In this document: positions 6,134-54,991 of the stretch, piece by piece
Layout of the letters: every line of letters begins with the position of its first letter
How positions within the stretch are numbered: position 1 is the first letter of the stretch
Source: Centroscyllium fabricii
Lineage: Eukaryota
Length of the DNA stretch: 64,000 nt
NCBI GenBank assembly: GCA_051313645.2
Contig: JBNRSN020000009.1
Location: forward strand, 104,408,001-104,472,000
Direction: 5' to 3'
The notes under the pieces: generated by a model
Database searches by the model: none
What the model was told of the DNA's origin: nothing
What the model saw: only the letters and a program-made list of their open reading frames with translations
Made by a program: the position numbers and the translations under genes

Positions 6134-6534
6134 GGGCAGCACGGTGGCATAGTGGTTAGCACTGTTGCCTTACAACACTAGAGACCCGGGTTCAAATCCG
6201 GCCTCGGGTGACTATCTGTGTGGAGTTTGCACATACTCCCCGTGTCTGCGTGGGTTTCCTCCTGGTGCTCCGGTTTCCTCCCACAGTCCAAAGATGTGCG
6301 GGTTAGGTTGATTGGCCATGATAAATTGACTCTTAGTGTTAGGGGGATTAAATATGTGGGGTTACGGGGATAGGGTGGGATATGCGTCGTTGCAGACTCG
6401 AGAGGGATCGAGGGATATGGGGACAAGGCAGGGACAGGGTACTGGGTTTGGATGATCAGCCATGATCTCATTGAATGGCGGAGCAGGCTCGAAGGGCCCA
6501 ATGGCCTACTCCTGCTCTTATCTTCTATGTCTAT
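6134..6534 (+). mobile_element. HE1-type tRNA-derived V-SINE; tail interrupted by E1 and resuming at 11498
   Basis: tRNA-like head (A box TGGCATAGTGG, B box GGTTCAAATCC), V core TGTGTGGAGTTTGCAC...TGCGTGGGTTTCC, CR1-like 3' end, (TCTATG)n tail. Confidence 0.88.
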
Positions 6535-6843
6535 AGTGGTAACCGTTATATGTACTCTTATTACCACCTTAATATTGTTACCAATATTACTTGTATGTAT
6601 AGCGGCCGAGTGCATGACATAACTGTCCTGTATTGCGACACTGTCGCGGGGTCAGGTCAGCCACACCTCTAACTCCTCCCCTCGTGGGGACTGACCTGCC
6701 CCCATTCATTCTGTACCTGATATTCGATCGGAGCGTAGCTCCTTTGTAAGCTAATAAAAGCCTATAGTTAAGGTAACTACGCGTCTTAGTTTTATTAGAC
6801 TATTGACGATACGTCAATTTTATTAGCTTAGAAAAATTCTAAA

Positions 6844-9800
6844 ATGGAGAGCGGCGCTGTAAAACCTGAAAAGCTGGACATTAGTCCACAGGACCCAGCC
6901 ACCGCCAACACCTTCGAACACTGGTTCGGCCTCCTGGAGGCCCACATGGACGCCGCCAAGGCTACAACTGACGAGAACAAGCTACATGTTCTCCGGTCCA
7001 GGATCTCCAGCCGGGTATTCTCCTTCTTCCGTGACGCCACAACATACCCCGATGCGGTGGCTAAACTGAGGAAATGCTACGAGCGCCCGGTCCACTCAGT
7101 CTACGCCAGACATGTGCTCGCGACCAGACCACAACTACCGAGTGAGTCAAATGAGCAGTTCGAGCAGGCGCTCCAAGCCCTTGTCCGGGTCTGTGGCTGA
7201 CAACCACGGACGGCACAAGAGGAGGCGAACCTCCTCGTCCGGGACGCCTATGTAACGGGACTCAGGTCCGCAGAGGCCCGCCAGTGGCTGCTGGAAAAAG
7301 ACACTTTAAGTCTGGAGGAGGCGATCTCCATCGCCAACGCTGTGGAGGGCGCACGCCGCAAGCTGCAGGCATACGGCGGCCCAAACCCACAGGCCGTCTA
7401 CGACGCGTGGGCAGTCCCACAATGGGTCGAGACCCCCACAATGGCAGCGGCAGCTGCGAGGACGCCGGCGGAGAAGAAATGCTACTTCTGCAGCCAGGGA
7501 CTACACCCACGGGTGAGATGCCCAGCGAAGACCGCGACCTGCGAGAGGTGCTCAAAGAAAGGACATGACGCCAAGGCCTGCAGATCAGCCCCGGCGCCCA
7601 ACTCCAGGTACAACAGCACGGCCTGCGAAAGCTCCAACACCAGCCCTTGGCCTCAGGTAAGCTGCAACTGCAGCGCGACCCAGCGACGGTCCGGGGGTAG
7701 AGTACAAGCGCCCCCGTCTCCCACCCTGATGCGGCAGAGGCCGGCTGCACCCACGGCACGCCAAACTCAGCCACGGCCGGCCATGCGCGACCCCCCAACG
7801 CCGGCATCCCGCCCAGCGCGTCTCGCTGCGTGCGAATTACGGGCACCGCCAACCCAGCCACCGCGGCCCGCTGCATGCGAACCACGGGCACCGCCAACCC
7901 AGCCACCGCGGCCCGCTGCGTGCGAACCACGGGCACCGCCACCGCATCTACAGCGGCCCGCCGTGTGCGAACCACGGGCGCCGCCATCTTGTCTTCAGCG
8001 GCCAGCCATGTGCGACCCCCCGGCGCCGCCATCTTGTCTTCAGCGGCCAGCCATGTGCGACTCTCCGGCGCCGCCATTTTGTCCCCAGAGGCCGGCCATG
8101 TGCGAACCACGGGCGCCGCCATCTTGTGTACGGCCCCGACGAGCGGAGGGCTCCCACACACACACACACACTTCGGCCTCAGACATCCTGAAAGTCGATC
8201 AGGCTAGGCCGCACACCCTATCAAATTCCATGATGGGGATTAAAGTCAACGGCCATGCCACTAACTGCCTGTTCGACACCGGAAGCACAGAGAGCTTCAT
8301 TCACCCCGATACAGCGCAGCGCTACGGACTGCAGACCCTGCCCACGTGCTACCAAATCTCCATTGCTTCACAGTCCCACACCGCGGACGTCACCGGCTAC
8401 TGCTCTGTCATGCTCACAGTTAAGGGCTGCATGTACCGTAATTTTAAATTGTACATACTCAAGCAGTTGTGCGCCCCAGTCTTACTGGGACTGGATCTCC
8501 AGTGCCACCTTAAGAGTTTGACAATGGATTTCGGCGGGACCCTGCCCCCCCTCACCGTCAGTAGCCAGGACAATCTCTTCCCAAAGCGGTGCCCGGCCTG
8601 CGGCCTCTCCACCCTGAAAGTCGACCCCCCCTCACTGTTCGCCAACCTCGACCCCAACTTCAAGCCCATTGCTACTAAGAGTCGGCGGTACAGTGCAGGG
8701 GATCGGACGTTTATCAGGTCGGAGGTCGGGCGTATGCTGAAGGAGGGGATAATTGAAGCCAGCACCAGCCCCTGGCGGGCCCAGGTTGTAGTGGTTAAGA
8801 CTGGCGAGAAACATCGGATGGTTATCGATTACAGCCAGACCATTAACCGCTACACCGGGCTCGATGCCTACCCCCTCCCCCGCATCTCGGAAATGGTTAA
8901 CCAGATCGCCCAATATAAGGTGTTCTCCACAATCGACCTTAAGTCGGCGTATCACCAACTCCCGATCCGGAAAGCCGACCGCCCGTACACCGCCTTCGAG
9001 GCGAACGGTCGGCTCTACCACTTCCTCTGGGTCCCCTTCGGCGTGACCAACGGGGTGTCGGTATTCCAGAGGGAGATGGAGGTTGACCAAAACGGGTTGC
9101 AAGCCACCTTCCCCTACCTGGACAACGTGACCAACTGCAGCCATGACCAGCAGGACCACGATGCCAATCTGGCCAAATTGCTGCACACGGCGAAACGGCT
9201 AGATCTCACATACAACAAAGACAAATGTGTCTTTTGTACAGATCGGCTCGCCATCCTCGGATACGTGGTGGAAAACGGGCTCCTCGGCCCCGACCCACAG
9301 CGTAGGCATCCCTTACAGGAACTGCCCCTTCCTCACAACCCCAAAGCCCTGAAGAGATGTCTGGGATTTTTCTCCTATTACACGCAATGGGTTCCCCAGT
9401 TCGCGGATAAGGCCAGACCGCTCCTTAAGGCTGCCGCCTTCCCCCTCTCGGTAGAAGCCCAAACGGCATTCGCCCGGATCAAGGAAGACATTATCAAGGC
9501 GACCATGCATGCCGTTGATGAATCCATCCCTTTCCAGGTGAAGAGTGACGCTTCGGACTTTGCCCTTGCCGCCACCCTGAATCAGGCAGGCAGGCCCGTA
9601 GCGTTTTTCTCCCGCACCTTACAGGGACCCGAGATTCGCCACTCTGCAGTGGAAAAGGAGGCCCAGGCCATCGTGGAGGCCGTGCGCTACTGGCGTCATT
9701 ACCTGGTCGGTAAGCGTTTTACCCTGCTCACCGACCAACGGTCGGTCGCGTTTATGTTTAATAATAAACAAAAGGGTAAAATCAAAAATGATAGGATCCT

Positions 9801-11179: not shown

Positions 11180-12765
11180 TTTTCAAAGAAGGGGTGAATG
11201 TGGTAACCGTTATATGTACTCTTATTACCACCTTAATATTGTTACCAATATTACTTGTATGTATAGCGGCCGAGTGCATGACACAACTGTCCTGTATTGC
11301 GACAGTGTCGCGGGGTCAGGTCAGCCACACCTCTAACTCCTCCCCTCAGGTGAGTGCCTTATAGGTGGGGACTGACCTGCCCCCATTCATTCTGTACCTG
11401 ATGTTCTATCGGAGCATAGCTCCTTTGTAAGCTAATAAAAGCCTATAGTTAAGGTAACTACGTGTCTTAGTTTTATTAGACTATTGACGATACGTCATCT
11501 ATGTCTATGTTTACAGTTGAATTTCACTGCTACGAAGTTATTCCAAAGCTTCAAACAGAACAAATTTTCCCTCCCTGTTGGCAGAAGCTCCAGTGTAGTC
11601 ATCACAGTAGCTTAAAGCTTGATCGGTTGAATCCCTGATACAAAGAACTTTGGCGGTCTCCAAGCGCTCGTAATAACAAGGTTTGATGCATACACATTAA
11701 TTCATTACTGTCAGTGGAACTGTGGTCCAAAAATCTTATCCCATGGACAGGTCCGTTGACCCACAAAGAACTAAAGCGCTAACAAAAAATGCCTGTAAGT
11801 AAAATCTCGACAGCCAGTGCGACTGGAGGACACGTGGCTCCTGCTGGGGTGTCTGATTGTTTTTATACTGCCCATCAGTCTGCTGCTTCTGACAGAATGG
11901 TAACACTGAGATTCAGAACCATATGCCGGCATGGAGTGAATGAAAGAAACCAAAGAGTTCTATATTTAGTTGCAAATAGAATCCAAGTGATTCCAACATT
12001 CAGGCCTTGTTTCCCAGTATAAATGAGCTGATTTTGTGCAATCCAACTTTTCAAAAACTGATAATTTTGATGGAATTAAGCAAGTCTCGTTGTGTACTTG
12101 TTGTGTTTTCAAAAGTGAGGACAACTCAGAAGTGACTTCTGACTGTTACGGTATAATATGAACATTTCTAGATGATCATTTACTTCTGCAAATGTCAGTA
12201 CAGGTTGTGCACCGATAATCCGTTACCCGATAAGCCGGCAGCTTCAGTCTTCCGGAACAAATTGCCCCGAATGTCCTGCGCATGCGCATGCGCATGTGCA
12301 AAATGGCTGCCGCGATCGATGCTTCGGGGAATGATCTGCGCATGCGCCGCCGAACGGCGAGCGCATGCGCAGATCATTCAAAACGGCCGCCGGAAGCTGG
12401 ACCAACCATTGCCTCCTCATTCGTGCGCTGCTGAATGGTATGGATCTGCCGCGCACGGCGGGTTCTGGGCGGCTGCAGCTGCACTGCAATACTTTTAATA
12501 CAATTACTTTTAATACTTTGTAAAAGTGTGAAGTGTGAGAGAAAGCATCTCGATCCACAGCCCACTCACAGGGGCAGGGTTAGTATGTTTAACAGTGGAC
12601 TGCGGTTTCAGCACAAGTGTGGTAACCCATTTATGTCGGTTCTACCACTGTACCATTATGGCTAATAGTGGGCTGTGCAGATGTTAGGCACAGCCCTGTA
12701 TACTGTGACACTGTTGGGAGCCAGGTCAGCCACACCTCCAACTCCTCCCCCAGGTGAGGCCCCGT

Positions 12766-12846
12766 TATAGGTGAGATCTGACCGAGGCGCCTTCATTCCT
12801 GTACTGTAGTTCGTTCCGGAGGGTAGCTCCGTTCTTAGCAATTAAA
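12766..12846 (+). promoter_or_regulatory. Predicted LTR promoter (TATA, Inr) and poly(A) signal of E2
   Basis: TATAGG at 12766, Inr-like TCATTCC with A at 12795 (~29 nt downstream), ATTAAA at 12841-12846. Similar layout in E4, E5 and the solo LTR. Confidence 0.6.
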
Positions 12847-12931
12847 AGCCTTTAGTTTCGGTAACTACTCGTCGACTCTTTTAATCGAAGGTATTGACGA
12901 TACGTCAATTTTAATTGCTAATTATTTCTAA

Positions 12932-15900
12932 ATGGAGAGCAGCGCAGTTAAACCTGAGAAGCTGGACATCAGTCCCCAGGAACCTGCCGCTGCCGCCACG
13001 TACGAACACTGATTCGGCCTCCTGGAGGCCTACATGGACGCCGCCAAGGCTACAACGGACAGGAACAAGCTGCATGTCCTACGATCGAAGATCTCCAGCA
13101 GGGTATTCACCCTCATCAGGAACGCCTCATCCTACGTATCGGCTGTACGAATTCTGAAAAAATGTTACGAGCGCCCGGTCCATTCGGTCTACGCCCGACA
13201 TGTGCTTGCGACCAGATCTCAGCTACCGGGTGAGTCCAATGAGCAGTTCGAGCAAGCGCTCCTGGCCCTGGTATGGGTCTGTGGCTGCAAAGGCACTACA
13301 GCTGAAGAGAAGGCAGAACTCCTCGTTCGGGACGCTTACGTTACAGGACTGAGGTGTGTGGAAGCCCGCCAGCGGCTACTAGAGAAAGACGATTTATCCC
13401 TCGAGGAGGCGACTAAGATAGCCAAATCAGTAGAGGGGGCCCGGAGCAAGTTACAGGCGTACAGCGGCACTAACCCGCAAGCCTACAACATATGGGCCAT
13501 GCCACAACAGGCCCAAGCCTGGGCGCAACGGGCCGAGGCCCCCACGATGGCCGCGACGGCCACTAAAGACACTAAAGACAAGCGCTGCTACTTCTGCAGC
13601 CAGGGACTGCACCCAAGAGCGAAATGCCCAGCCAGGACAGCGACCTGCGAGAAATGTGCGAAGAAGGGACACTACGCTAAGGCCTGCAGATCAGCTCCAG
13701 CAGCGCCCAACTCAAGGTACAACAGTGCAGCCTGTGAGAGCACCGACAGACACCAGGTAAGCTGCAATAGCAGCGCGATCCAGCGACGGTACGGGGGTAG
13801 ACAACAAGCGCCCCCATCCCCCACCCCGATGCGGCAAAGGCCGGCCAAGCGCGACCCCCCAACGCGGCCGGCTGCGTGCGAATCACGGGCACCGCCAACC
13901 CGACCAGCGCGGCCCGCTGCGTGCGAATCACGGGCACCGCCAACCCGATCACCGCGGTCCGCTGCGTGCGAATCACGGGCGCCGCCAGCGCGTCCACAGG
14001 GCCCCACCATGTGCGTCCCCTCGGAAACGCCATTTTGTACTCAGGGCCCCTCCATGTGCGAGCCAGGGGCGACGCCATCTTGTATCCAGGGCCCTTCCAT
14101 GTGCGCCACCATCTTGTATCCCGGGCCCCACCATGTGCGAGCCAGGGGCGCCACCATCTTCTGCGCAGCCCCGATCAGCAGGGGCTGCGGCAGCCAGAAT
14201 CAGAGTTAGCCAGGGCAGGCCCCATACTCTGTCTAACTCCATACTGCCGATTAACATTAATAACTACACTGTCGACTGCCTTTTCGACACAGGCAGCACT
14301 GAGAGTTTCGTTCACCCCGATACAGTGCGGCGCTGCGGGCTGCAGGTCCTGCCCACTAACTACCAAGTCTCCCTAGCTTCACAGTCCCACACCGCGGACG
14401 TCACCGGCTACTGCTCCGTCACGCTCACCGTCAAGGGGCGCGTGTACCGTAATTTTAAATTGTATACCCTCCAACAGTTGTGTGCCCCAGCCTTACTAGG
14501 TTTGGATTTCCAGTGCCACTTCAGGAGTGTGACAATGGAGTTCGGCGGGACTTTACCCCCCCTCACCGTCAGTAGCCGGGACAATCTCCCTCCAAAGCGG
14601 AGCCCGGCCTGCGGCCTCTCCACCCTGAAAATCGACCCCCCCTCGCTGTTCGCCAACCTCGATCCGAAGTGCAAACCCATTGCCACGAAGAGTCGGCGGT
14701 ACAGTGAGGGGGATCGCACGTTCATCAGGTCGGAGGTCGGGCGGATGCTAAAGGAGGGGATAATTGAAGCCAGCACCAGCCCCTGGCATGCCCAAGTTGT
14801 AGTGGTGAAGTCTGGCGAAAAACAGCGGCTGGTTATCGATTACAGCCAGACTATCAACCGCTACACCGGGCTCGACGCCTACCCCCTTCCCCGCATCTCG
14901 GAAATGGTCAATCAGATCGCCCAGTACAAGGTGTTCTCTACGATCGACCTTAAATCGGCGTATCACCAACTCCCGATTCGGAAAGCCGACCGCCCCTCCA
15001 CCGCCTTCGAGGCGAACGGTCGGCTCTACCACTTCCTCCGGGTCCCCTTTGGCGTGACCAACGGGGTGTCAGTGTTCCAACGAGAGATGGACCGTATGGT
15101 TGACCAAAACGACTTGCAGGCCACTTTCCCTTACCTGGACAACGTGACCATCTGCGGCCACGACCAGCAGGACCACGATGCCAATCTGGCCAAATTCCTC
15201 GCCACGGCGGACAAGCTGGACCTTACGTATAACAAGGACAAATGTGTCTTTAATACAGCCCGGCTCGCCATCCTCGGATACGTGGTGGAGAACGGGCTCC
15301 TCGGCCCCGACCCACAGCGTATGCGACCCCTGCAAGAACTGCCCCTACCTCACAACCCCAAAGCCTTGAGGAGATGCCTAGGACTTTTCTCCTATTATGC
15401 ACAATGGGTCCCACAGTTCGCGGATAAGGCTAGACCACTCCTCAAGGCTGCCGTCTTCCCCCTTTCTGTAGAAGCCCAAATGGCATTCGCAAGGATAAAG
15501 GAAGATATTATCAAGGCGACCATGCTCGCTGTTGATGAATCCATCCCTTTCCAGGTGGAGAGTGACGCTTCGGACTTTGCCCTTGCTGCCACCCTGAATC
15601 AGGCAGGCAGGCCCGTAGCATTTTTCTCCCGCACCTTACAGGGACCCGAAACTCGCCACTCAGCAGTGGAAAAGGAGGCCCAGGCCATCGTGGAGGCCGT
15701 GCGCTACTGGCGTCATTACCTGGCCGGTAAGTGTTTTACCCTGCTCACCGACCAACGGTCGGTGGCGTTTATGTTCAACAATAAACTACGGGGTAAAATC
15801 AAGAATGATAAGATCCTGCGGTGGCGGATCGAACTCTCGACTTACGAGTATGACATTCTTTACCGCCCAGGCAAACTCAACGAACCCCCGGACGCACTGT

Positions 15901-17129
15901 CCAGGGGAACGTGCGCCAGTGCCCAGCTCGACCGGCTGAAGGACCTCCACGACCGCCTTTGCCACCCGGGTGTCACCAGACTCGCCCACTTCGTCAAATC
16001 CCGTAGCCTCCCCTACTCCATCACGGAGATCAAGGCTATGACCTGAGAGTGCCCTGTCTGCGCCGAGTGCAAACCCCACTTTTTCCGGCCAGACACGGCG
16101 CACCTCATTAAGGCCACCCGCCCCTTTGAACGTCTCAGCATGGACTTCAAAGGCCCCCTCCCCTCCACCGACCGCAACTCATACTTCCTCACGGTAGTGG
16201 ATGAGTTCTCCCGCTTCCCCTTCGCCTTCCCCTGCCCAGACATGACGAGCGCAACGGTGATCAAACACTTCACCATGCTGTTCGCCATCTTTGGTCTCCC
16301 CAGCTACATCCATAGCGACCGGGGGTCATCGTTCATGAGCGATGAACTGCGCCAGTTTCTGCTCCAGAGAGGGGTTGCCACGAGCAGAACGACCAGTTAT
16401 AACCCCCGGGGGAACGGCCAGGTAGAAAGGGAGAATGGGATCATTTGGAAGGCGGTCACCCTGGCTCTCAAGTCCAGAGGCCTTCCAGTGTCCCATTGGC
16501 AGGCAGTCCTCCAAGACGCGCTGCACTCTATACGCTCTCTATTATGTACTGCCACTAACGCCACCCCGCACGATTTGATTTTCTCTTTCAACAGGAGGTC
16601 GACTTCGGGGACAGCTCTTCCTCCATGGCTGACGACTCCGGGGCCGGTTTTGCTTAGAAGGCATGTCCGGAGCCACAAGACGGACCCCCTGGTGGACAAG
16701 GTACAGCTCCTACACGCAAACCCGCACTACGCCTTTGTGCAGTTCCCGGACGGGCGTGAGGACACCGTGTCCATCAGGGACCTGGCTCCCGCAGGAAGCA
16801 CCACCACAGTGCCCCCGGCCGGCCAGCAGGCCGATCAACCACCAGACACACGATGGCCCCTGAGTTTCCCCGACTACGACCCGGACGGCGGGGACCAGCC
16901 GAGCCCACCGCCACCTGAAGCCACAACGCCGGCGGATGCGGGCGATTCGACCCAGGAGGCACCACCACCAACACCGGAGCGCCGGCGGTCCTCCAGGCAG
17001 ACACGACCGCCGGACAGACTTATTGTGAACTGTTCTACCGAATCACCCCCCCCCGAATCAAAGTTTTTAAGAAGGGGTGAATGTGGTAACCCGTTTATGT
17101 CTGTTCTACCACTGTATCATTATGGCTAA
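12932..17129 (+). pseudogene. E2 gag-pol
   Basis: ATG at 12932, stop ~13010, frameshift in the repeat ~14105, stop at 16044. PR, RT, RNase H and IN motifs as in E1. Confidence 0.92.
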
Positions 17130-19844
17130 TAATGGGCTGTGCAGATGTTAGGCACAGCCCTGTATACTGTGACACTGTTGGGAGCCAGGTCAGCCACACC
17201 TCCAACTCCTCCCCCAGGTGAGGCCCGTTATAGGTGAGATCTGACCGAGGCTCCTTCATTCCTGTACTGAAGTTCGTTCCGGAGGGTAGCTCCATTCTTA
17301 GCAATTAAAAGCCTTTAGTTTCGGTAACTACTCGTCGACTCTTTTAATCGAAGGTATTGACGATACGTCAACAAGCAGCTGAGCCTCTTGACTGAGGCGG
17401 ACAGTCACCAGGCTGCAGCTGTCAGTCCGTGTCCGGGCTCCCGTCACAAACTGGCTCGGCGGCAGCAGCAACCCCAAAGGCGATGGCGAGGGAAGGCGGA
17501 CCTACTGGGCCCGACCCGCGCCCGCACAACCCTCCTTCCCCCCCTGCAAGACCGGCCTTTCACTGCTGCCTGACAGCCCTAAAAGCTCAACGGAATGCCA
17601 CGAAAGCCTGAGCCTGTAGGCTGACCAGTCCAAAAACTTCATGGCGGCCATTACTGCATGATCTGCGCATGCGCTCGCTGTACGGCAGCTGTGGTAAACC
17701 ACTCTTCTATGTATTATATGTATATCTATCCACTCTGTCTTGTATATGTATTGTTGTAATCGTACTATTCACCATGTTGTATCATAGTTCATTGTATACG
17801 ATTACCTGGACATGCCCATGCTGGCTCCGCCTGCGACTCCTCCCTCCCGGGGCCAGGTACATAAGCGGCCGTCTCCCATCCCCCTGCCATTCCTGGGGAC
17901 GGTCGACTAGCTGGTGCATGTCCACCTTTAGTGAATAAAAGCCGAATTGTTTTACCCTCTTAACTAATCGTCCACGAGGTCGTTATTTCGGTCACAATTT
18001 TATTCACTAAATTTGACGATGGAAGCAATGCTCAAGCCAGCAACGTTCGAGCTGGACCCCCGGACACCAGGTGCATCAAATACGTTTACGCACTGGTTTG
18101 ACTGCTTTGATGCATTCATCAAGGCGAACGCAGCGGTCGTCAGGACCGAAGAAGACAAACGGCGTCTCCTCAACGCCCGGGTGGGCCCTCAGGTATACTC
18201 CAGAATCGTAGATGCACCATCGTACTCGGATGCAATCGGGATCCTCAAGGCGGAGTACAACCGGGCACCCAACATCGTCCACGCCAGACACCTCTTGGCT
18301 ACCAGAAAACAGCAACCCGGTGAGTCCAGCGTGGAATTCCTACGTGCGCTGAGACTAATTTCCCGGGCCTGTGACTGTAAACAGCAATCGGCCCAGGTCC
18401 ACGCGGACAACCTAATCAGGGACGCGTATGTGACGGGCCTCAGGTCGGACTATATTAAACAAAGGCTGTTAGAGCAGAACGGCCTTGACCTGCAGGCAAC
18501 GGCGACTTGGGCAATGCGCTTCATGCGGCATCGCTGAATTTATCCTCATATTCTGGAAACTACGCGGGCCCAGCCCCAACAAATTGGACATCGCCGGCGC
18601 CACGGCCGGCGGAAGAAATAACTGCAGCCACTCGCTCTAAGACGGCCAAATACTACTTCTGCGGGCAGTCTCAGCATCCGAGACGGAGCTGCCCGGCAAG
18701 AGACGAGGCCTGCTCGAAATGCGGCAAAAAGGGACACTATGCCAAAGTCTGCAGAGCAACTGCAGCGCCGCAACCGAAACCGGGCAGTGGCGCGTGTGGG
18801 ACGTGGGGGCAGCCATCTTGGACACAGCCATCTTCAACACAGCCCACCGCATGGCAGCAGACGCCATCTTGGTCTCAGCCACCCCCTCCGCAGTACACCA
18901 CATGGCGGCAGCCATCTTGGGGCCAGGCCCCAGACGACTTCTCTGCGGATAAAGACGACTCGACCGATCCGGTATTAGCTTCAGTCACGCTGGATCAAAA
19001 CAAGGCACAACCACTTGGGAAGTCAATGATGACGGTGGAAGTGAACGGACAAGACGTTGAGTGCCTCTTCGACAGCGGGAGCACGGTGAGTTTTGTCCAC
19101 CCAGAAACAGTAAGGCGCCTCTCCCTTAAGGTTATGCCAGCGAGCCAAAAGATATCCATGGCATCAAAGTCAGAATCCGCGGATGTCTCCGGACGTTGCA
19201 CGGTGGCCCTAACAGTACGGGGCGTGCACTTTAATCATTTTTAATTTTTCGTGCTGCCGCAGCTCTGCGCTCCATTATTATTGGGCCTAGACTTCCAGTG
19301 CCATCTCCAAAGCATTACCATGGCGTACGGTGGGCCCCTTCCCCCGCTCACGGTCTGCAACCGGCGCTCCTCGCAGCATCCACAGCACGCTACCTGTGGC
19401 CTCTTGACCCTTAAAGTCGCCCCTCCCTCGCTCTTTGCTAACCTCACCCCGGACTGCAAGCCCGTCGCCACCAAAAGTAGGCGCTACAGTGCCGGGGACA
19501 TGGACTTCATCAAGTCCGAGGTGAAGCGCCTCCTGAGAGAGGGGGTTATCGAGGCCAGTAACAGCCCCTGGAGGGCGCAGGTAGTGGTGGTAAAGACCGG
19601 AGCTAAGAACCGGATGGTAGTGGACGATAGCCAGACCATTAACCGGTTCACCCAGTTAGACGCGTACCCCCTTCCCCGGATAGCGGACATGGTAAATCAG
19701 ATCTCACAGTTTCGGGTGTTCTCAACTATAGATCTGAAGTCCGCGTATCACCAGCTCCCCATTTGCCCAGAGGACCGTCTCTATACTGCCTTCGAGGCTG
19801 ACGGTCGCCTCTATCACTTCCTCAGGGTCCCGTTTGGCGTCACG

Positions 19845-22800
19845 TGTGGTAACCCATAATGTTATGTTGTACCACTGTATTCTTGTTGCCAATAATTGGC
19901 AGTGTATGTGTGATACACAGCCCTGTAACACTGTCGGGAGCCAGGTCAGCCACACCTCTAACTCCTCCCCCAGATGAGGCCTTTATAGGTGGAGACTGAC
20001 TGAGGCTCCCTCATTCCTGTTCAGATGTTCATTCGGAGGGTAGCTCCTAAGTAAGTGATTAAAAGCCTATAGTTACGGTAACTACTCGTTGAGTCTTTTA
20101 CTCTGAGATATTGACGATACGTCAATTTTAATCACTTAAAGTTTTCAAATGGAGAGCGGTGCAGTTGAGCCAGAAAAGCTGGATATCAGTCCACAGGACC
20201 CTGCCGCCGCCACCACGTTCAAACACTGTTTCGGTCTCCTGGAGGCCTACATGGACGCCGCCAAGGCTACAACCGACGGGAAGCTGCAGGTTCTCCGGTC
20301 CAGGATCTCCAGCCGAGTATTCTCCCTCATCCGAGACGCCAAAACCTACCCAGGGGCAGTGGAAAAGCTGAGGAAATGCTACGAGCGCCCGGTCCATTCG
20401 GTCTACACCAGACATGTGCTCGCGACCAGACCACAGCTACCGGGTGAGACTAATGAACAATTTGAGCAAGCGCTCCAGTCCCTGGTACGGGTCTGCGGCT
20501 GCCAAGCCCGGACAGCAGAAGAGGAGGCCAACCTCCTCGTTCGAGACGCGTATGTAACTGGCCTAAGGTGCGTGGAAGCCCGCCAGCGGCTGCTCGAAAA
20601 AGACACTTTGTCTCTCGAAGACGTGATTGCTATAGCTAACTCCGTTGAAGGAGCACGCAATAAGCTGCAGGCGTACAGCGGCACAAACCCGCAGGCCTAC
20701 GACATGTGGGCCGCGCCACAACGGACCCAGGCCTGGGCAGCACCACAACGGGTCGAGACCCCCATGATGGCTGCGACAGCCACAAAAGACAAACGCTGCT
20801 ACTTCTGCGGCCAGGGACTGCACCCGAGAGCGAGATGCCCAGCAAGGACCGCGACCTGTGAGCGGTGCACCAAAAAGGGACATTACGCAAAGGCTTGCAG
20901 ATCAGCACCAACAGCGCCCAACTCCAGGTACAACAGCGCAGCCTGTGAAAGCTCCGACAGACCTCAGGTAAGCTGCAATAGCAGCGCGATCCAGCGACGG
21001 TCCGGGGGTAGAAGGAAAGCGCCCCCATCTCCCACCCCAAGCGCGACCCCCCAACGCCAGCAGCAGACCCAACGCGGCCGGCTGCGTGTGAATCACGGGC
21101 ACCGCCAACCCGACCACCGCGGCTCGCTGCGTGCGAACCACGGGCACCGCCAACCCAGTCACCGCGGCCCGCTGCGTGCGAACCACGGGCGCCACCAGCG
21201 CGCTCACAGCGGTCAGCCGCGTGCGAACCACGGGCGCTGCCATCTCGCCCCCAGTGGCCCACCATGTGCGACCCCCCGGCGCCGCCATCTGGTCCCCAGC
21301 GGCCCGCCATGTGCGACCCCTCGGCGCCGGCATTTTGTCTCCAGGGCCCCACCATGTGCGAGCCAGGGGCGCCGCCATTTTGTCTCCAGGGCCCCACCAT
21401 GTGCGAGCCAGGGGCGCCGCCATTTTGTGTACAGCCCCAACCAGCAGGGGGCCCACACACACAAAAGCACACGTCGGCTTCAGCCATACCCAGAGTGGAC
21501 CAGGACAGGCCACACACTCTGTCTAACTCAATAATGCCCATCAACATAAACGGCCATACTACTAATTGCCTATTTGACACTGGAAGCACGGAGAGCTTTG
21601 TGCACCCTGATACAGTGCAGCGCTGCGTACTGCAGATCCTGCCCACAAACTACCAAGTCTCCCTTGCTTCAAAGTACCAAACCGCGGACGTCACCGGCTA
21701 CTGCTCCGTCACGCTCACAGTCAAGGGGTGCGTGTACCGTAATTTTAAATTGTACACCCTCCAGCAGTTGTGTGCCCCAGCTTTACTAGGTCTGGATTTC
21801 CAGTGCCACCTCAAGAGCGTGACAATGGAGTTCGGCGGGACCTTGCCCCCCCTCACCGTCAGTAGCCGGGACAGTCCCTTCCCAAAGCGGAGCCCAGCCT
21901 GCGGCCTCTCCACCCTGAAAATCGACCCCCCCTCACTGTTCGCCAACCTCGACCCCAAGTGCAAACCTATTGCTACCAAGAGTCGGCGGTACAGTGTGGG
22001 GGATCGCACGTTTATCAGGTCGGAGGTCGGGCGTATGCTGAAGGAGGGGATAATTGAAGCCAGCTCCAGCCCCTGGGGTGCCAAGGTTGTAGTGGTAAAG
22101 TCTGGCGAGAAACAACGGCTGGTGATCGATTACAGCCAGACCATCAACCGCTACACCGGGCTCGACGCCTACCCCCTCCCCCGCATCTCGGAAATGGTCA
22201 ATCAGATCGCCCAGTATAAGGTGTTCTCCACGATCGACCTTAAGTCGGCGTATCACCAACTCCCGATCCGGAAAGCCGACCGCCCCTACACCGCCTTCGA
22301 GGCGAACGGTCGGCTCTACCACTTCCTCCGGTCCCCTTCGGCGTGACCAACGGAGTGTCAGTGTTCCAGCGGGAGATGGACCGCATGGTTGACCAGAACG
22401 AGTTGCGGGCCACTTTCCCTTACCTGGACAACGTGACCATCTGCGGCCACGACCAGCAGGACCACGATGCCAATCTGGCCCAATTTCTTGACACGGCGGA
22501 TAAGCTGGACCTCACGTATAACAAAGACAAATGTGTCTTTAATACAGACCGGCTCGCCATCCTCGGATACGTGGTGGAGAACGGGGTCCTCGGCCCCGAC
22601 CCACAGCGTATGCGCCCCCTTCAAGAACTGCCCCTACCTCACAACCCCAAAGCCTTGAGGAGACGCCTAGGATTTTTCTCCTATTACGCACAATGGGTCC
22701 CACAGTTCGCGGACAAGGCTAGACCGCTCCTCAAGGCTGCCGTTTTCCACCTTTCGGTAGAAGCCCAAATGGCATTCGCCCGGATAAAGGAAGACATCAT

Positions 22801-24703
22801 CAAGGCGACCATGCTCGCTGTTGATGAATCCATTCCCTTCCAGGTGGAGAGCGACGCTTCGGACTTCGCCCTTGCTGCCACCCTGAATCAGGCAGGCAGG
22901 CCCGTAGCGGTTTTCTCCCGCACCCTACAGGGACCCGAAACTCGCCACTCAGCAGTGGAAAAGGAGGCCCAGGCCATCGTGGAGGCCGTGCGCTACTGGC
23001 GTCATTACCTGGCCGGTAAGCGTTTTACCCTGCTCACCGACCAACGGTCGGTGGCGTTTATGTTTAATAATAAACAGAAGGGTAAGATCAAGAATGATAA
23101 GATCCTGCGGTGGCGGATCGAACTCTCGACTTACGAGTATGACATTCTTTACCGACCAGGTAAACTCAATGAACCCCCGGACGCACTGTCCAGGGGAACG
23201 TGCGCCAGTGCCCAGCTGGACCGGCTGAAGGACCTCCATGACCGCCTCTGCCACCCAGGTGTCACCAGACTCGCCCACTTCGTTAGATCCCGTAGCCTCC
23301 CCTACTCCATCACGGAGATCAAGGCTATGACCCGAGAGTGCCCTGTTTGCGCCGAGTGCAAACCCCAATTTTTCCGGCCAGACACGGTGCACCTCATCAA
23401 GGCCACCCGCACCTTTGAACGTCTCAGTGTGGACTTCAAAGGCCCCCTCCCCACCACCGACCGCAACTCATACTTCCTCACGGTCGTAGATGAGTTCTCC
23501 CGCTTCCCCTTCGCTTTTCTCTGCGCAGATATGACGAGCGCAACGGTGATAAAACACTTCACCACGCTGTTCACCATCGTCGGTCTCCCCAGCTACATCC
23601 ATAGCGACCGGGGGTCATCGTTCATGAGCGATGAACTGCGTCAGTTTCTGCTCCAGAAAGGGGTTGCCACGAGCAGAATGACCAGTTACAACCCCCGGGG
23701 GAACGGCCAGGTAGAAAGGGAGAATGGGATCATCTGGAAGGCGGTCACCCTGGCTTTGAAGTCCAGAGGCCTTCCAGTGGCCCATTGGCAGGCAGTCCTC
23801 CCAGACGCGCTGCATTCTATACGCTCTCTCTTATGTATGGCCACTAACGCCACTCCTCATGATTTGATTTTTGCTTTTCCCAGGAAGTCGACTTCGGGGA
23901 CAGCTCTTCCTCCATGGCTCACGACACCGGGGCCGGTCTTCCTTAGAAGACACGTCCGTGGCCACAAGACCGACCCCCTGGTGGACAAGGTGCAGCTCCT
24001 GCATGCGAACCCGCAATACGCATTCGTACAGTTCCCGGACGGGCGTGAGGACACCGTATCTATCAGGGACCTGGCGCCCGCAAGAAGCACCACAGCAGAG
24101 CCCCTGGTCGGCCAGCAGGCCGCTCAGCCACAGTATCCAGAACAACCCCGACACCTACGATGGCCTCCGAGGTTTCCAGAGCCGCAGCAGTGGCCAGCCC
24201 AGGACCACCACTCCGATAGCTCGGACCAGCTGAGACCATCACCACCCGAAACCATGGCACCAGGGCAACTGTCACCACCAGCGGACTCGAGCAGCACGGA
24301 CCATGAAGGACCATCACCGGAACTGCGGCGGTCCTCCAGGCTGGCACGACCGCCGGATAGGCTGATATTGAACTGCTCGGTCCATTCACCCCCCCGGAAT
24401 TAAAATTTTCAAGAAGGGGTGAATGTGGTAACCCATAATGTTATGTTGTACCACTGTATTCTTGTTGACAATAATTGGCTGTGTATGTGTGATACACAGC
24501 CCTGTAACACTGTCGGGAGCCAGGTCAGCCACACCTCTAACTCCTCCCCCAGGTGAGGCCTTTATAGGTGGAGACTGACTGAGGCTCCCTCATTCCTGTT
24601 CAGATGTTCGTTCGGAGGGTAGCTCCTAAGTAAGTGATTAAAAGCCTATAGTTACGGTAACTACTCGCTGAGTCTTTTACTCTGAGATATTGACGATACG
24701 TCA
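19845..24703 (+). mobile_element. Ty3/Gypsy LTR retrotransposon E4 (Mag-like), nested in E3
   Basis: 280-bp LTRs 19845-20124 and 24424-24703. TSD TCACG at 19840-19844 and 24704-24708. Confidence 0.96.
20149..24403 (+). pseudogene. E4 gag-pol
   Basis: Frameshifts near 21040 and 22335. Open RT-RNase H-IN segment 22343-24403. Confidence 0.92.
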
Positions 24704-27700
24704 TCACGAATGGGGTCTCAGTCTTCCAAAAGGGAGATGGACCGAATGGTCGATCAGTACGGGCTGCGAGCCACCTTCCCGTACCTCGATAATGTGACCA
24801 TCTGCGGCCACGATCAGCAGGACCATGACGCCAACCTCCAGAAATTTCTCCACACCGCCAAAACACTCAACCTGACCTATAACACTGAAAAATGTGTGTT
24901 CAGGACCACCCGCCTCGCCATCCTCGGCAGTGTTGTGGAGAATGAGGTCATCAGTCCCGACCCGGACCGCATGCGCCCCCTCCTGGAGCTCCCCCTCCCC
25001 CACTCCCTCAAGGCCCTCAAAAGGTGCCTGGGGTTCTTCGCCTATTATGCCCAGTGGGTCCCCAACTATGCGGACAAAGCTCGCCCACTACTCAAATCAA
25101 CCTCATTCCCCCTGTCAGCAGATGCCCGCGCGGCGTTCTGCGGCATTAAGGACGACATTGCAAAGGCAACGATGCACACTGTGGACGAGTCCGTCCCGTT
25201 CCAGGTCGAGAGCGATGCATCGGACTTTGCCCTGGCCACCACCCTTCACCAGGCGGGTAGACCCGTGGCCTTCTTCTCACATACCCTCCAGGGCCCCGAG
25301 ACCCGTCACTCTTCAGTCGAGAAGGAGGCCCAGGCAATTGTTGAAGCAGTGCGTCACTGGAAGCACTACCTGGCCGGCAAGCGATTTACCCTGCTGACTG
25401 ACCAACGCTCAGTCGCTTTTATGTTCAACAACAAAGAGCGGGGTAAAATCAAGAATGACAAGATATTAAGGTGGAGAATTGAGCTCTCCGCGTTCAATTA
25501 TGATATCTTGTACCGGCCCGGAAAATTTAACGAGCCCCCAGACGCCCTATCCCGCGGTACATGTGCCAGCGCACAAGTAGACCATCTCCAAACCCTGCAC
25601 AACGACCTCTGCCACCCGGGGGTCACCAGGTTGGTTCACTTTGTGAAGTCCCGCAACCTCCCCATCTCCATCGAGGAAGTCAAGACCATGACCAGCAACT
25701 GCCAGGTCTGCGCGGAGTGCAAGCCGCACTTCTACCGGCCAGACCAGGCGCACCTGATCTAGGCCACCCGTCCCTTTGAATGACTCAGCGTCGATTTTAA
25801 AGGGCCCCTTCCCTCGGCCAACAGGAACGTGTACTTCCTTAACGTCATCGACGAGTACTCGCGCTTCCCCTTCGACATCCCCTGCCCGGACATGACCTCT
25901 GCCACTGTCATCAAGGCCCTCCGCAGCATTTTCTCCCTGTTCGGCTACCCCAGCTACATCCATAGCGACCGGAGGGCCTCTTTCATGAGTGGCGAGCTGC
26001 GTCAGTTCCTGCTAGCCAAAGGCATCGCTACTAGCAGGACTACCAGCTACAACCCCCGGGGGAATGGACAGGTAGAGAGGGAGAACGCCATGGTCTGGAA
26101 GGCCATCCTGTTAGCCCTGCGGTCTAAAGCCCTCCCAGGCTCCCGCTGGCAGGACATCCTCCCTGAAGCGCTCCACTCCATCCAGTCACTCCTTTGTACG
26201 GCCACTAATGCCACCCCTCACGAGCGACTTTTTGCCTTCCCCAGGAAGTCGGCTTCCGGGACCTCGCTGCCATCATGGCTATCATCCCTGGGATCAGTCC
26301 TACTCCGGAAGCACGTGAGGGGCCACAAGTCAGACCCCCTGGTCGAACGGGTCCACCTCCTGCACGCCAATCCCCAGTACGCCTACGTGGCGTACCCCGA
26401 TGGGAGGGAGGACACCGTGTCCATCAAGGACCTGGCACCAGCGGGGGCCCCCAAAACCCCCCCCCCGCCCAGCAGCCCGCGCCCCCGCGCCTGCCAGCCA
26501 CCCCACCCGGGCCACCGGCACCAAGGTACGCTCCCCGGCACGAGAATCAGGCACCATGGTACGTCCGCCCGGCACCTGTAGGCAGCACGGCATGGCCTCC
26601 GGCATGGCTCCATAGTGCACGCCCCCTAGAGTCAGACGACGAGGGGGAGAGCGCGCCACCAACTGTCACCGCAAGGGCACCGACAAGGGACCAACCGACT
26701 CAATCGGCTATCGTATGCCCACCGATATCCTCACCAGCGGTGCGATCAACACAACCGGCTGCTTCACGTCCGCCGACACCACCAGCGGTGCGCCGTTCCA
26801 CCAGGCTTACCAGGCCGCCTGAGAGACTAAACCTATAAATTGAAAGAACTGTCGCATTCACCCCGCCGGACTTTCGTTTTAAAGACGGGGTGAATGTGGT
26901 AAACCACTCTTCTATGTATTATATGTATATCTATCCACTCTGTCTTGTATATATATGTATTGTTGTAATCGTACTATTCACCATGTTGTATCATAGTTCA
27001 TTGTATACGATTACCTGGACATGCCCATGCTGGCTCCGCCTGCGACTCCTCCCTCCCGGGGCCAGGTACATAAGCGGCCGTCTCCCAAATCCCTGCCATT
27101 CCTGGGGACGGTCGACTAGCTGGTGCATGTCCACCTTTAGTGAATAAAAGCCGAATTGTTTTACCCTCTTAACTACTCGTCCACGAGGTCGTTATTTCGG
27201 TCACTCAGCCATTTCCAATGTTGGCTTCATTCTCCCGGTTTTTTCACTTTCCCGGCATGGGCCTAGTCCCGCCCATGCCGAATTAACGGTGCACAACCTG
27301 TATTACTTATTAGTTTGAATATGCAAGATAAAGACATTCACATAACAATTGGTGCCTGACAATGTATTAGTTAGCCTCAATATATTAGTTCAAGGCAGTC
27401 TTCCCAAGCAGAGACTGAGTTTGAATTTTGTCAACATAGGCTGATCTGCCATATATAACGTTGGTTTTAAACGTTAAAAATAATTTTTAATTCAATCTTG
27501 GGTTATAAAGAGCTCTCAAAAAAAAGTTCAGAATAAACATTTTACTCTGACTTCATGCTTGCACCACTCTGAGCCTCCAAAAGCTGAGGCGGTGGTGGCC
27601 AACACGTGGCCAACAGTAGATGCCAGGCACCTGTTCCCATACCACCTGGACCAGTAGGCCAGCTGTTGCAGTTGCTTATTCCAGTCGGAAAGCAATCTCT

Positions 27701-34065: not shown

Positions 34066-37000
34066 TGACGTATCGTCAATATCCCGAGATTAAAAGACAC
34101 GATGAGTAGTTACCGTTACTATCGGCTTTTAATCACTAAGATTGGAGCTACTCTCCGAACGAACATCTGAACAGGAATGAGGAGCCTTGGCCAGTCTCCA
34201 CCTATAAGGCCTCACCTGGGGGAGGAGTTAGGGGTGTGGCTGACCTGGCTCCCGACAGTATTACACCGGTATTACAGGGCTGCGTATTACATATATGCAG
34301 CCCATTATTGATTACAATAATGCAGTGGTATAACATACAATATGGTTACCACATTCACCCCTTCTTGAAAATTTTAAGTCCGAGGGGGTGAATGGACCGA
34401 GCAGTTTACTATAAGTCTGTCCGGCGGTCGTGTCTGCCTGGAGGACCGCCGGCGTTCCGGTGGTGGCCCTTCCTGGTCCGTGCCCCTCGAGTCCGCCGGT
34501 GGTGGCAGTGGCTCTGGTGCCGTGGTTTCTGGTGACGATGGATCCAGCTGGTCTGAGCCATCTGGGTGGTAGTCCTCTACTGGCAACTGCTGGGGCTCTG
34601 GGAAACTCGGGGCCCATCGTATACTTGGTGGGTGTTCTAGATACTGTGGCTGAGCAGCCTGCTGGCCGACCAGGGGCTCTGCGGTGGTGCTTCCTGCGGG
34701 CGCCAGGTCCCTGATGGATACGGTGTCCTCACGCCCGTCCGGGAACTGCACAAATGCATAATGCGGGTTCGCATGCAGGAGCTGCACCTTGTCCACCAGG
34801 GGGTCGGTCTTGTGGCTCCAGACATGTCTCCTAAGGAAGACCGGCCCCGGTGTCGTGAGTCATGGAGGAAGAGCTGTCCCCGAAGTCGACTTCCTAGGGA
34901 AAGCAAAAATCAGATCATGAGGGGCGGTGTTAGTAGCTGTACACAGGAGCGAGCGTATAGAGTGCAGCGCGTCTGGGAGGACTGTCTGCCAATGGGCCAC
35001 TGGAAGGCCTCTGGACCAGGGTGACCGCCTTCCAAATGATCCCATTCTCCCTTTCTACCTGGCCGTTCCCCCGGGGGTTATAACTGGTCGTTCTGCTCGT
35101 GGCAACCCCTTTCTGGAGCAGAAACTGGCGCAGTTCATCGCTCATGAACGATGACCCCCGGTCACTATGAATGTAGCTGGGGAGACCGAAAATGGCGAAC
35201 AGCGTGGTGAAGTGTTTTATCACCGTTGCGCTCGTCATATCTGCGCTGGGGAAGGCAAAGGGGAAGCGGGAGAACTCATCTACGACCGTGAGGAAGTATG
35301 AGTTGCGGTCGGTGGTGGGGAGGGGGCATTTGAAGTCCACGCTGAGACGTTCAAAGGGGCGGGTGGCCTTAATGAGGTGCGCCGTGTCTGGCCGGAAAAA
35401 GTGGGGTTTGCACTCGGCGCAGACAGGGCACTCTCGGGTCATAGCCTTGATCTCCGTGATGGAGTAGGGGAGGCTACGGGATCTAACAAAGTGGGCGAGT
35501 CTGGTGACACCCGGGTGGCAAAGGCGGTCGTGGAGATCCTTCAACCGGTCCAGCTGGGCACTGGTGCACGTTCCCCTGGACAGTGCGTCCGGGGGTTCAT
35601 TGAGTTTACCTGGTCGGTAAAGAATGTCGTACTCGTAAGTCGAGAGTTCGATCCACCACCGCAGGATCTTATCATCCTTGATTTTACCCCGTTGTTTATT
35701 ATTAAACATAAACGCCACCGAAAGTTGGTCGGTGAGCAGGGTAAAACGCTTACCGGACTGGTAATGACGCCAGTAGCGCACGGCCTCCACGATGGCCTGG
35801 GCCTCCTTTTCCACTGCAGAGTGGCGAGTTTCGGGTCCCTGTAAGGTGCGGGAGAAAAACGCTATGGGCCTGCCTGCCTGATTCAGGGTGGCAGCAAGTG
35901 CAAAGTCCGAAGCGTCGCTCTCCACCTGGAAGGGAATGGATTCATCAACAGCGAGCATGGTCGCTTTGATGATGTCTTCCTTTATCCGGGCGAATGCCAT
36001 TTGGGCTTCTACCGAAAGGGGGAAAACGGCAGCCTTGAGGAGTGGTCTAGCCTTGTCCGCGAACTGTGGGACCCATTGTGCGTAATAGGAGAAAAATCCT
36101 CGGCATCTCCTCAAGGCTTTAGGGTTGTGAGGTAGGGCCAGTTCTTGTAGGGGGAGCATACGCTGTGGGTCGGGGCCGAGGACCCCGTTCTCCACCACGT
36201 ATCCGAGGATGGCGAGCCGGTCTGTATTAAAGACACATTTGTCTTTGTTATACGTGAGGTCCAGCTTATCCGCCGTGTCGAGAAATCTGGCCAGGTTGGC
36301 ATCGTGGTCCTGCTGGTCGTGGCCGCAGATGGTCACGTTGTCCAGGTAAGGGAAAGTGGCCTGCAACTCGTTTTGGTCAACCATGCGGTCCATCTCCCGC
36401 TGGAACACTGACACTCCGTTGCTCACGCCAAAGGGGACCCGGAGGAAGTGGTAGAGCCGACTGTTCGCCTCGAAGGCAGTGTAGGGGCGGTTGGCTTTCC
36501 GGGTCGGGAGCTGGTGATACGCCGATTTAAGGTCGATCGTGGAGAACACCTTGTACTGGGCGATCTGATTGACCATTTCCGAGATGCGGGGAAGGCGGTA
36601 GGCGTCGAGCCCGGTGTAGCGGTTAATAGTCTGGCTGTAATCGATCACCAGCCATTGTTTCTCGCCAGACTTTACCACTACTACCTGGGCGCGCCAGGGG
36701 CTGGTGCTGGCTTCGATTATCCCCTCCTTCAGCATCCGCCCGACCTCCGACCTGATAAACGTGCGATCCCCCACACTGTACCGCCGACTCTTGGTAGCAA
36801 TAGGTTTGCACTTGGGGTCGAGGTTGGCGAACAGCGAGGGGGGGTCGATTTTCAGGGTAGAGAGGCCGCAGGCCGGGCTCCGCTTTGGGAAGGGATTGTC
36901 CCGGCTACTGACGGTGAGGGGGGGCAAGGTCCCGCTGAACTCCATTGTCACGCTCTTGAGGTGGCACTGGAAATCCAGACCTAGTAAGGCTGGGGCACAC

Positions 37001-49702: not shown

Positions 49703-50096
49703 GGGCAGCACGGTGGCACAGTGGTTGGCATTGTTGTCTCACAGCACTGGAGACCCGGGTTCAAATCCAGCCTCGGGTACTATCTGTGTGGAGTTTGCAC
49801 ATTCTCCCCGTGTCTGCGTGGGTTTCCTCCGGGTGCTCCGGTTTCCTCCCACAGTCCAAAGATGTGCGGGTTAGTTTGATTGGCCAGGATAAATTGACCC
49901 TCAGTGTTAGGGAGATTGAATATGTGGGGTTACGGGGATAGGGTGGGATATGTGTCGATATAGGGATCGAGGGATATGGGGAGAGGGCAGGGGCGGGGTG
50001 CTGGGTTTGGATGATCAGCCATGATCTCATTGAATGGCGGAGCAGGCTCGAAGGGCCGAATGGCCTACTCCTGCTCCTAGTTTCTATGTTTCTATA
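49703..50096 (+). mobile_element. HE1-type V-SINE
   Basis: Highly similar to 6134-6534; (TTTCTATG)n tail. Confidence 0.88.
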
Positions 50097-50145
50097 GATA
50101 AAGGATGGGAGAATTAAATTTCCCAGGACTGAGGTTAGAGATATT

Positions 50146-54979: not shown

Positions 54980-54991
54980 TCGGGGTCACCA
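54980..54991 (-). promoter_or_regulatory. Primer-binding site for tRNA-Trp
   Basis: TGGTGACCCCGA begins 1 nt after the 5' LTR and is complementary to the tRNA-Trp 3' end. Confidence 0.85.

Follow-up and report, generated by a model that had tools for sequence, protein, structure and literature searches.

Probable Self-Priming by a Long RNA Segment in a Ty3/Gypsy Clade of the Shark Centroscyllium fabricii

Introduction

In the retrotransposon Tf1 of Schizosaccharomyces pombe, the RNA's first 11 bases pair with a site behind the long terminal repeat (LTR) and are released by RNase H, which cuts between bases 11 and 12 (PMC7175516). About half of the complementary DNAs keep a copy of the site at their 3' end (PMC11042837), and the structure involved is a three-duplex “pretzel” (PMC4600332, 10.1101/2022.12.06.519325); self-priming of Tf1 is also treated in PMC5341516. 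Among Gypsy elements this strategy is tied to Tf1/sushi and Tcn1, while it is predicted for TAR copia (PMC6317226); the link to Tf1/sushi chromoviruses is drawn in 10.1101/2022.12.06.519325 as well. Here we describe a window of 64,000 nucleotides (nt) of Centroscyllium fabricii DNA (assembly GCA_051313645.2, contig JBNRSN020000009.1, forward strand, 104,408,001–104,472,000) with five Gypsy elements, E1 to E5, in which the position of the primer-binding site is the exact complement of a segment of the element's own LTR.

Like Tf1 and Tf2 of S. pombe and like Tj1, these elements have no site for a transfer RNA (tRNA), and the site that follows their LTR pairs with their own R region; as in these systems, an adjacent helix would stand at the cut and the primer would be copied into DNA. 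There are differences as well. In Tf1 the pairing involves the extreme 5' end of the RNA, while in the elements described here it would involve the 3' end of a 52-nt segment that includes the poly(A) signal. The clade has no chromodomain, its reverse transcriptase (RT) mostly carries a YxDN motif and, compared with the pretzel, it conserves only a short RCC/GGY stem beside the helix. Self-priming has been established by experiment in Tf1; in the shark clade it is deduced from sequence.

The complementarity, its register, its covariation and its spread over the clade are shown by the sequences, and primer-like copies ending at the initiator are found in the genome. It seems quite probable that minus-strand synthesis is primed by the first ~52 nt of the element's own RNA, paired by their last 13 nt and cut after AAUAAAA. 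The clade would then likely represent Tf1-like self-priming in a new form, with a ~52-nt primer and in a chromodomain-less Gypsy. If so, self-priming extends beyond Tf1/sushi to a large chromodomain-less animal clade, in an altered design with a long primer that is paired by its 3' end and overlaps the poly(A) signal. This bears on the proposal that hairpin priming came before tRNA priming (PMC3601003).

Complementarity of Leader and LTR

The five elements have LTRs of 280–310 nt, 92–98% alike within each element, and a polypurine tract; a 5-base-pair (bp) target-site duplication surrounds E1, E2, E4 and E5. The LTRs have the ends TG...CA, with single-base departures at the start of E1 (AG) and at the end of E3 (CT). 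A deletion has removed the TATA box from the 5' LTR of E1, which measures 281 nt where its 3' LTR has 298 nt, and E4 is nested inside the RT of E3 with a duplication TCACG, so that E3 is interrupted. The open reading frames of the window and their homologs indicate the order gag, protease, RT, RNase H (present in the window elements) and integrase, which is the Ty3/Gypsy arrangement, and the best solved structural relative of the RT is that of Ty3 (E 1.5e-45). The catalytic motif of the RT is YLDN in all five. A chromodomain at the C-terminal end of integrase was found neither in the window frames nor in any of 8 full-length homologs, while a sushi-like control was positive. A sixth element, E6 (50784–55239), has an RT with YLDD and a TGG site that matches a tRNA-Trp gene of the same genome, and was used as a control.

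An initial annotation of the window had noticed the five pairs, and all of them are indeed exact reverse complements at the coordinates given. The right arms begin one A past the terminal CA of 5' LTRs that are delimited by their 3' twin and the target-site duplication, and the gag ATG lies 27, 24, 22, 24 and 23 nt after the LTR in E1 to E5, within the range of 22–27 nt claimed. E6 has the same one-base spacer between CA and its tRNA site.

The feature is not limited to these five elements. Sampling of 1.06 Mb of the genome, both near the window and far from it, yielded 97 Gypsy-like RT loci, of which 58 belong to the clade; after removal of loci that lacked a plausible LTR pair or duplicated a junction, 38 clade elements were kept. 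From the cognate and shuffle comparisons onward, one with a mis-called LTR pair (C74625) is left out, giving 37 pairs, and the covariation tree also omits one with a 5' LTR deletion (A478239), giving 36 copies. A perfect helix of 10–17 bp between leader and 5' LTR is kept in 32 of the 38, and 29 of these 32 helices begin at the second base past CA. The absence of a TGG-type site, also part of the initial annotation, extends to all 38. The arm is present in both LTRs and lies 43–61 nt before the LTR end.

Controls remain far below these values. The flank behind the 3' LTR forms at most 6 bp in all 38 elements, and dinucleotide-shuffled LTRs never exceed 8 bp in 1110 trials. Nineteen CsRn1-like control elements reach at most 8 bp, and 15 of them have a TGG site; a lone value of 13 among the control flanks stems from a mis-assigned LTR pair of the clade (B1406). 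The name CsRn1 is given in part after the start motif of their LTRs (PMC3601003). Helices of at least 12 bp occur in 32 of 37 cognate pairs, compared with 44 of 1290 non-cognate ones. The 37 copies contain 25 distinct 13-mer arms, each tracking its own LTR, so that no single host RNA could match all the sites. Against a small set of 12 tRNA sequences of 3 types, Lys, Cys and Trp, the longest match of a tRNA or half-tRNA to a clade site is 7 nt.

Covariation and Abundance

The covariation that had been proposed from five elements is borne out on the tree of 36 copies and genome-wide. Over 13 columns the arm has undergone 37 changes and the site 44, and there are 45 changes of the joint state, where about 81 would be expected without linkage; positions 12 and 13 of the arm still covary. 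For one arm variant, 11,307 of 12,037 junctions in the genome are exactly complementary at the three free positions. Among 481 scored pairs, 466 are Watson-Crick, 2 are G-U and 13 are mismatches. The mismatches in the core (positions 3–12, one deletion copy set aside) fall on the site in 4 cases, on the 5' LTR in 3 and on the 3' LTR in 1, a pattern expected of decay following insertion. Pairing drops to chance past position 13 in this genome and past about 15 in other hosts, in a count in which the first 9–10 positions are at 100% by selection. No faster evolution of the arm's free columns was seen in comparison with other LTR columns (4 changes each against 4–7, two long-branch rows left out). 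G-U pairs make up 17 of 92 in the neighbouring stem and 1 of 286 in the helix, a comparison of little weight, biased by a stem search that allowed G-U.

A looser junction pattern gives at least 240,891 junctions in the genome, against 7 for the reversed control. If each of them headed a 4.7-kb element, they would by extrapolation account for about a sixth of the 7.2-Gb assembly; with 58 of the 97 Gypsy-like RT loci sampled, the clade is a major component of this genome. In one place four clade elements, 99% alike, stand in a tandem array ~4.35 kb apart (contig C1, ~100,034,000–100,050,000).

Putative Copies of the Primer Fixed in the Genome

If plus-strand synthesis copies a primer that is still attached, rare insertions should keep extra complement of that primer. 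A search for the LTR end, followed by the site and by a continued complement of the upstream R, returned 567 matches genome-wide of the E1/E2/E4/E5 type and 318 of the E3 type, and none with the controls. The same design applied to a tRNA-Trp family returned 314. In the order of listing, the first 90, 30 and 12 of these, respectively, were classified.

Of the 120 clade copies, 31 end at most 2 nt from the predicted initiator, which lies ~52 nt upstream of where the helix ends. In the 90 classified copies of the E1/E2/E4/E5 type, the segment itself holds 20 of the ends, 3–28 nt downstream of the initiator, and another 23 fall no more than 2 nt from the initiator A, where the drop-off in the first stretch predicts 3.3. 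None ends in the next 58 nt, for which 20 are expected; the other 47 reach deep into U3, and 42 of these extend as far as the LTR start. The 23 copies represent 12–13 junction types (p ~4e-6 for 13). The first 30 of the E3 type comprise 11 that end inside the segment, 7 and another one judged by eye at the initiator, 4 at -3 to -13 and 7 deep in U3. A DNA template would continue into U3, and the accumulation at the initiator therefore needs an RNA that begins there.

In the tRNA-Trp family, 6 of the 12 copies stop at 18 nt of tRNA complement, one at 19 and two at 30, while the remaining three have 16 nt and then the normal leader. A stop at 18 nt is the known stop at a modified base. The test thus reports the true primer where this is known, and it is applicable to any high-copy LTR family; should the interpretation hold for the clade, copying accidents in a genome can map both a primer and a start site without RNA data. 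In the same genome there are dense clusters of tRNA-Trp-like motifs and of tRNA-Lys and tRNA-Cys genes (C823, ~37.0–39.0 Mb; C2, 4.9–5.5 Mb; C778, 19.0–19.5 Mb).

Some properties of the copies deserve mention. Seven carry one extra G, complementary to the C that precedes the initiator A; this may reflect a start one base earlier, an untemplated base or part of a microhomology. A recurring structure of LTR, full primer copy and jump into gag represents either repeated events or small non-autonomous sub-lineages. The long copies continue in inverted orientation through U3; most extend to the LTR start and some into integrase, and they are likely integrated fold-back products of DNA. Mismatch rates between tail and own LTR (1.2%, 1.7% and 1.4%) do not separate the classes of copies. 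A template hairpin as the cause of the accumulation was rejected: in LTRs of the E1 type a stall predicts ends near -3/-4, the actual ends are at +1/0, and such ends also occur in subfamilies with other upstream sequence.

Promoter Motifs, Poly(A) Signal and Local Stems

Transcription had been predicted, from TATA and initiator motifs, to begin ~40 nt upstream of the arm; in this genome the promoter motifs and the ends of the primer copies point indirectly to the same place. In 25 of 29 copies an initiator-like motif is located 49–54 nt ahead of the arm end, and 10 of 29 have a strict TATA match 82–86 nt ahead of it, with TATAGG at about this distance in E2, E4 and E5.

The arm contains AATAAA or ATTAAA in all 21 distinct copies of this genome and in 16 of 22 families of other hosts. 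The other 6 families have no canonical hexamer in the arm, although 2 of them have one downstream, outside the helix, and the helix is thus independent of any concealment of the signal. The subsidiary idea that it blocks premature polyadenylation consequently fails as a general purpose; as a second role in this genome it may stand. In the other hosts the arm ends in AA in 22 of 22 families, in most of them in TAAA, and is mostly followed by RCC. A GGY partner for a stem that begins at the base after the arm is present in all 22, where 7.5 are expected. Stems directly 3' of the arm have a mean length of 4.2 bp, against 2.7 in shuffled sequences, and none of 1000 shuffles reaches this value. The partner adjoins the site in E3 and not in E1, E2, E4 and E5, and a fold in cis is predicted for all five.

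Besides this stem, E1, E2, E4 and E5 have a predicted 7-bp hairpin that spans the LTR end, formed by different letters in other subfamilies, while in E3 a stem joins the base after the arm to the end of U5. A second, T-rich stretch of U5 (6791–6799 in E1, with counterparts in E2, E4 and E5) is a partial complement of the poly(A) signal and often follows whether this reads AATAAA or ATTAAA; it is absent from several subfamilies.

Proposed Mechanism and Alternatives

Transcription would begin at the initiator, ~30 nt past the TATA box and ~52 nt before the arm end, as motifs and primer copies suggest. The last 13 nt of this 52-nt segment would pair with the leader one base past CA and close a folded U5, according to the predicted fold. 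Nicking directly 3' of AAUAAAA, where the RCC/GGY stem begins, would leave a 3'-OH that points into U5; this place is proposed because the next base is mismatched and the tRNA site of E6 has an identical one-base spacer. By analogy with Tf1, the nuclease might be the element's own RNase H. The remaining 15–20 nt of R could serve in the first strand transfer, with which a single, anecdotal genomic copy with a poly(A) run 14–15 nt after the arm is compatible. The plus strand would then copy the attached primer; usually only the 13 paired bases would survive, and occasionally the whole copy would be fixed. By this copying the site would be rewritten from the primer, which would explain why site and arm change together and nearly only as Watson-Crick pairs. 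As a secondary effect, the helix would hide the 5' poly(A) signal in these subfamilies. Self-priming with a primer of ~50 nt ending at AAUAAAA, as the initial annotation had supposed, is thus supported by the copies ending at the initiator together with the tRNA control; the cut itself is a prediction.

Several points weigh against this mechanism. The RNA ends, the cut and the primer are deduced from DNA, and contigs from three sequencing runs contained no usable RNA ends. The cut-off is less clean in the E3 type, with 4 of 30 copies at -3 to -13; 13 of the 23 initiator-ending copies jump into gag at one of two sites, of which one has an 8-nt microhomology; and 54 of 120 copies extend well into U3, for which fold-back of DNA is a sufficient explanation without an RNA primer. 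A plus strand annealed to a second, uncut RNA could give the same ends, in which case these map the start and not the cut. No TATA box at a constant distance is seen in the 22 families of other hosts, and the length of 52 nt is therefore supported for this genome only. The mechanism would also need a way of normally avoiding or removing an unpaired plus-strand tail of 39 nt, and the comparison with tRNAs covers the small set described above.

Among the alternatives, a primer of the size of that of Tf1 has to be weighed first. The working primer would be the arm of 11–15 nt only, generated either by transcription starting there or by another cut, at the arm's 5' edge. The loss of pairing after position 13 here and ~15 elsewhere would suit such a primer, as would the retention of just 13 nt in normal copies and the lack of a fixed upstream TATA in relatives. 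In this genome as in other hosts there is, moreover, a conserved AG 11–10 nt before the arm end, which resembles an initiator. However, a TATA-like match at a suitable distance (about -43 to -46) is found in only 1 of 29 copies here, positions 12 and 13 covary, and the 885 genomic copies extend beyond the arm, those examined accumulating at -52. We consider a short primer improbable.

Secondly, the helix could mainly hide the 5' poly(A) signal or fold the leader, while a host RNA such as a tRNA half acts as primer. The signal within the arm of all copies here and of most families elsewhere is in line with this, as is a helix that can form at the 5' LTR only, and the tRNA sample is small. Yet the variety of 13-mers does not fit one host RNA, 6 of the 22 families have no canonical signal in the arm, and hiding a signal has no need of a one-base register from the terminal CA. 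Past the site, moreover, the copies continue as LTR up to the initiator, whereas those of the tRNA family continue as tRNA, which leaves this explanation with very little probability. It is equally hard to credit that the same segment primes in trans, from another molecule, a 3' R or short transcripts of solo or 3' LTRs: the arm is carried by both LTRs, short LTR transcripts would yield the same 52-nt copies and several long copies run beyond the LTR start into integrase sequence, as expected of a 3'-end template, but fold-back of finished DNA explains the latter, a cis fold is predicted for all five elements and the stem at the proposed cut is conserved in 22 of 22 families.

Returning to priming by the 52-nt segment in cis, a wider scenario may be considered, which we put forward tentatively and hold to be somewhat doubtful as a whole. 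An animal-wide clade outside the chromoviruses would have evolved self-priming independently, with a capped primer of ~52 nt cut behind the poly(A) signal, a helix that both sets priming and silences the 5' signal, a site rewritten in each cycle and a natural YxDN polymerase.

Distribution and Relationships of the Clade

On the sequences sampled, the feature marks a clade that is spread over animals. Named homologs come from cartilaginous fish, a sea anemone, a mussel (Mytilus), insects and a nematode, the best being those of sharks and rays. From 90 loci of other hosts on metagenome and genome contigs, 46 were used and 44 that lacked a gag start or upstream DNA were dropped. An unanchored search for inverted repeats found a helix of at least 11 bp in 39 of the 46, compared with 2 of 460 shuffles, and the best repeat directly follows CAA in 36. 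At the level of families, complementarity of at least 10 bp in the CAA register is kept in 22 of 26. Ten contigs filed in bacterial genome bins carry clade elements of the animal type, probably by contamination with host DNA. No relatives were found among viral contigs; Kuafuorterviruses, with the motif IADD/VADD/LADD, were rejected as candidates, and the presence of an “SN clade” in a Daphnia paper was not borne out.

In trees of RT-RNase H the clade is a well-separated, long-stemmed branch, apart from CsRn1-like and sushi-like elements (starred supports of 100 and 99 in two trees). The nearest branch, with an unstarred support of 91, would be two probably Mag-like elements with a TGG site. 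Three sushi-like chromoviruses in the sampled DNA also lack TGG and have a leader that pairs with the LTR over 11 bp, or 11–12 with G-U; the one that was tested has Chromo and SH3_Tf2-1 domains. In contrast to the clade, their arms lie ~30 nt after a TATA box (in 2 of 3 elements) and ~260–410 nt from the LTR end, AATAAA following a long way downstream. They branch separately, although a union of the clade with two sushi-like rows is not rejected by the approximately unbiased test (p-AU 0.38) in a tree without named Tf1 or sushi sequences. The clade thus appears as a chromodomain-less Ty3/Gypsy clade that would work like Tf1 and that stands outside Tf1/sushi by its lack of a chromodomain and by its primer layout.

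Among 120 homologs, 88 have YxDN and 29 have DD; the two are interspersed on the tree. Helices are found in members of both kinds, so that YxDN is not required for pairing. The second D of the YXDD motif is presumably residue D211 in Ty1. Mutation D211N of the Ty1 RT reduces the polymerase rate 223-fold and abolishes transposition (PMC2148107). The defect of this mutant contrasts with the natural occurrence of YxDN in a successful family with more than 240,000 junctions.

Unnamed mollusc clades, MolGy1-16, are listed beside the Mag lineage (PMC6238403). The shark clade shares with Mag and MolGy the character of a chromodomain-less metazoan Gypsy, and a Mytilus protein is among its homologs. 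The string “self-prim” is absent from the text of PMC6238403, and the motifs of the clade gave no matches in the supplements searched (the readable files of PMC6238403, and PMC6317226). A literature search that covered neither subscription journals nor Repbase found nothing on self-priming or YLDN in the clade.

Sea anemone families named “Self-primed Gypsy” were reportedly described in Repbase Reports by Kapitonov and Jurka in about 2007. These are said to be marine-invertebrate families with a palindrome between the LTR and the start of the internal part; no primer length, start site or link to YxDN is known to have been given for them. The palindrome of the clade may already be catalogued in Repbase.

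Other Features of the Window

The features of the six elements are collected in Table 1.

Table 1. Features of elements E1 to E6; positions are those of the 64,000-nt window
Feature	Position	Strand	Basis
E1 5' LTR, TATA box lost	6535..6816	+	comparison with 3' LTR
E1 putative self-primer, initiator A to end of AATAAAA, 52 nt	6708..6759	+	initiator position and primer-copy ends in related copies; inferred
E1 LTR arm with poly(A) signal	6747..6759	+	exact complement
E1 short stem adjoining the arm on its 3' side (GCCT/AGGT), equivalent to the RCC/GGY stem of relatives	6760..6774	+	predicted pairing
E1 hairpin over U5 end, 7 bp, 3-nt loop	6802..6818	+	predicted fold
E1 primer-binding-site position, complement of 6747–6759	6818..6830	+	exact complement
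E1 gag ATG	6844..6846	+	
E1 RT motif YLDN	9115..9126	+	
E1 polypurine tract	11185..11198	+	
E1 3' LTR, then target-site duplication TCTAT	11199..11497	+	
E2 5' LTR; TATA-like 12766, initiator A 12795, arm 12835–12847	12618..12907	+	
E2 primer-binding-site position	12909..12921	+	
E2 RT motif YLDN	15132..15143	+	
E2 3' LTR, target-site duplication ACAAG	17082..17370	+	
E3 5' LTR; TATA-like 17858, initiator A 17889, arm 17927–17940	17690..17996	+	
E3 primer-binding-site position	17998..18011	+	
E4 5' LTR; TATA-like 19984, initiator A 20013, arm 20052–20064	19845..20124	+	
E4 primer-binding-site position	20126..20138	+	
E4 RT motif YLDN	22421..22432	+	
E4 3' LTR	24424..24703	+	
E3 RT motif YLDN	24782..24793	+	
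E3 3' LTR	26895..27205	+	
E5 3' LTR	34066..34353	-	
E5 RT motif YLDN	36337..36348	-	
E5 primer-binding-site position	38590..38602	-	
E5 5' LTR; TATA-like 38744, initiator A 38716, arm 38665–38677	38604..38891	-	
E6 tRNA-Trp primer-binding site, one base past terminal CA; control outside the clade	54980..54991	-	

E1 sits at the tail of an interspersed repeat (copies at 6134–6536, 49703–50097 and 61766–62031), which resembles a shark short interspersed element (SINE). The linker between gag and protease contains a 45-nt tandem repeat in E1, E2, E4 and E5 (7684–8163, 13775–14164, 20985–21464 and 37348–37651), which encodes proline-rich units with a cysteine; none was seen in E3. The U3 of E4 (~19960–19980), like that of E2, E5 and the 3' LTR of E1, contains CTAAC, which looks like a branch point, a run of pyrimidines, and CAG with GTGAG behind it; the arrangement resembles adjoining splice acceptor and donor sites. 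Finally, the CsRn1-like LTRs of E6 and its relatives hold, at varying distances, a stretch of 6–8 nt that is complementary to their own tRNA site and lies in a palindromic segment of U3.

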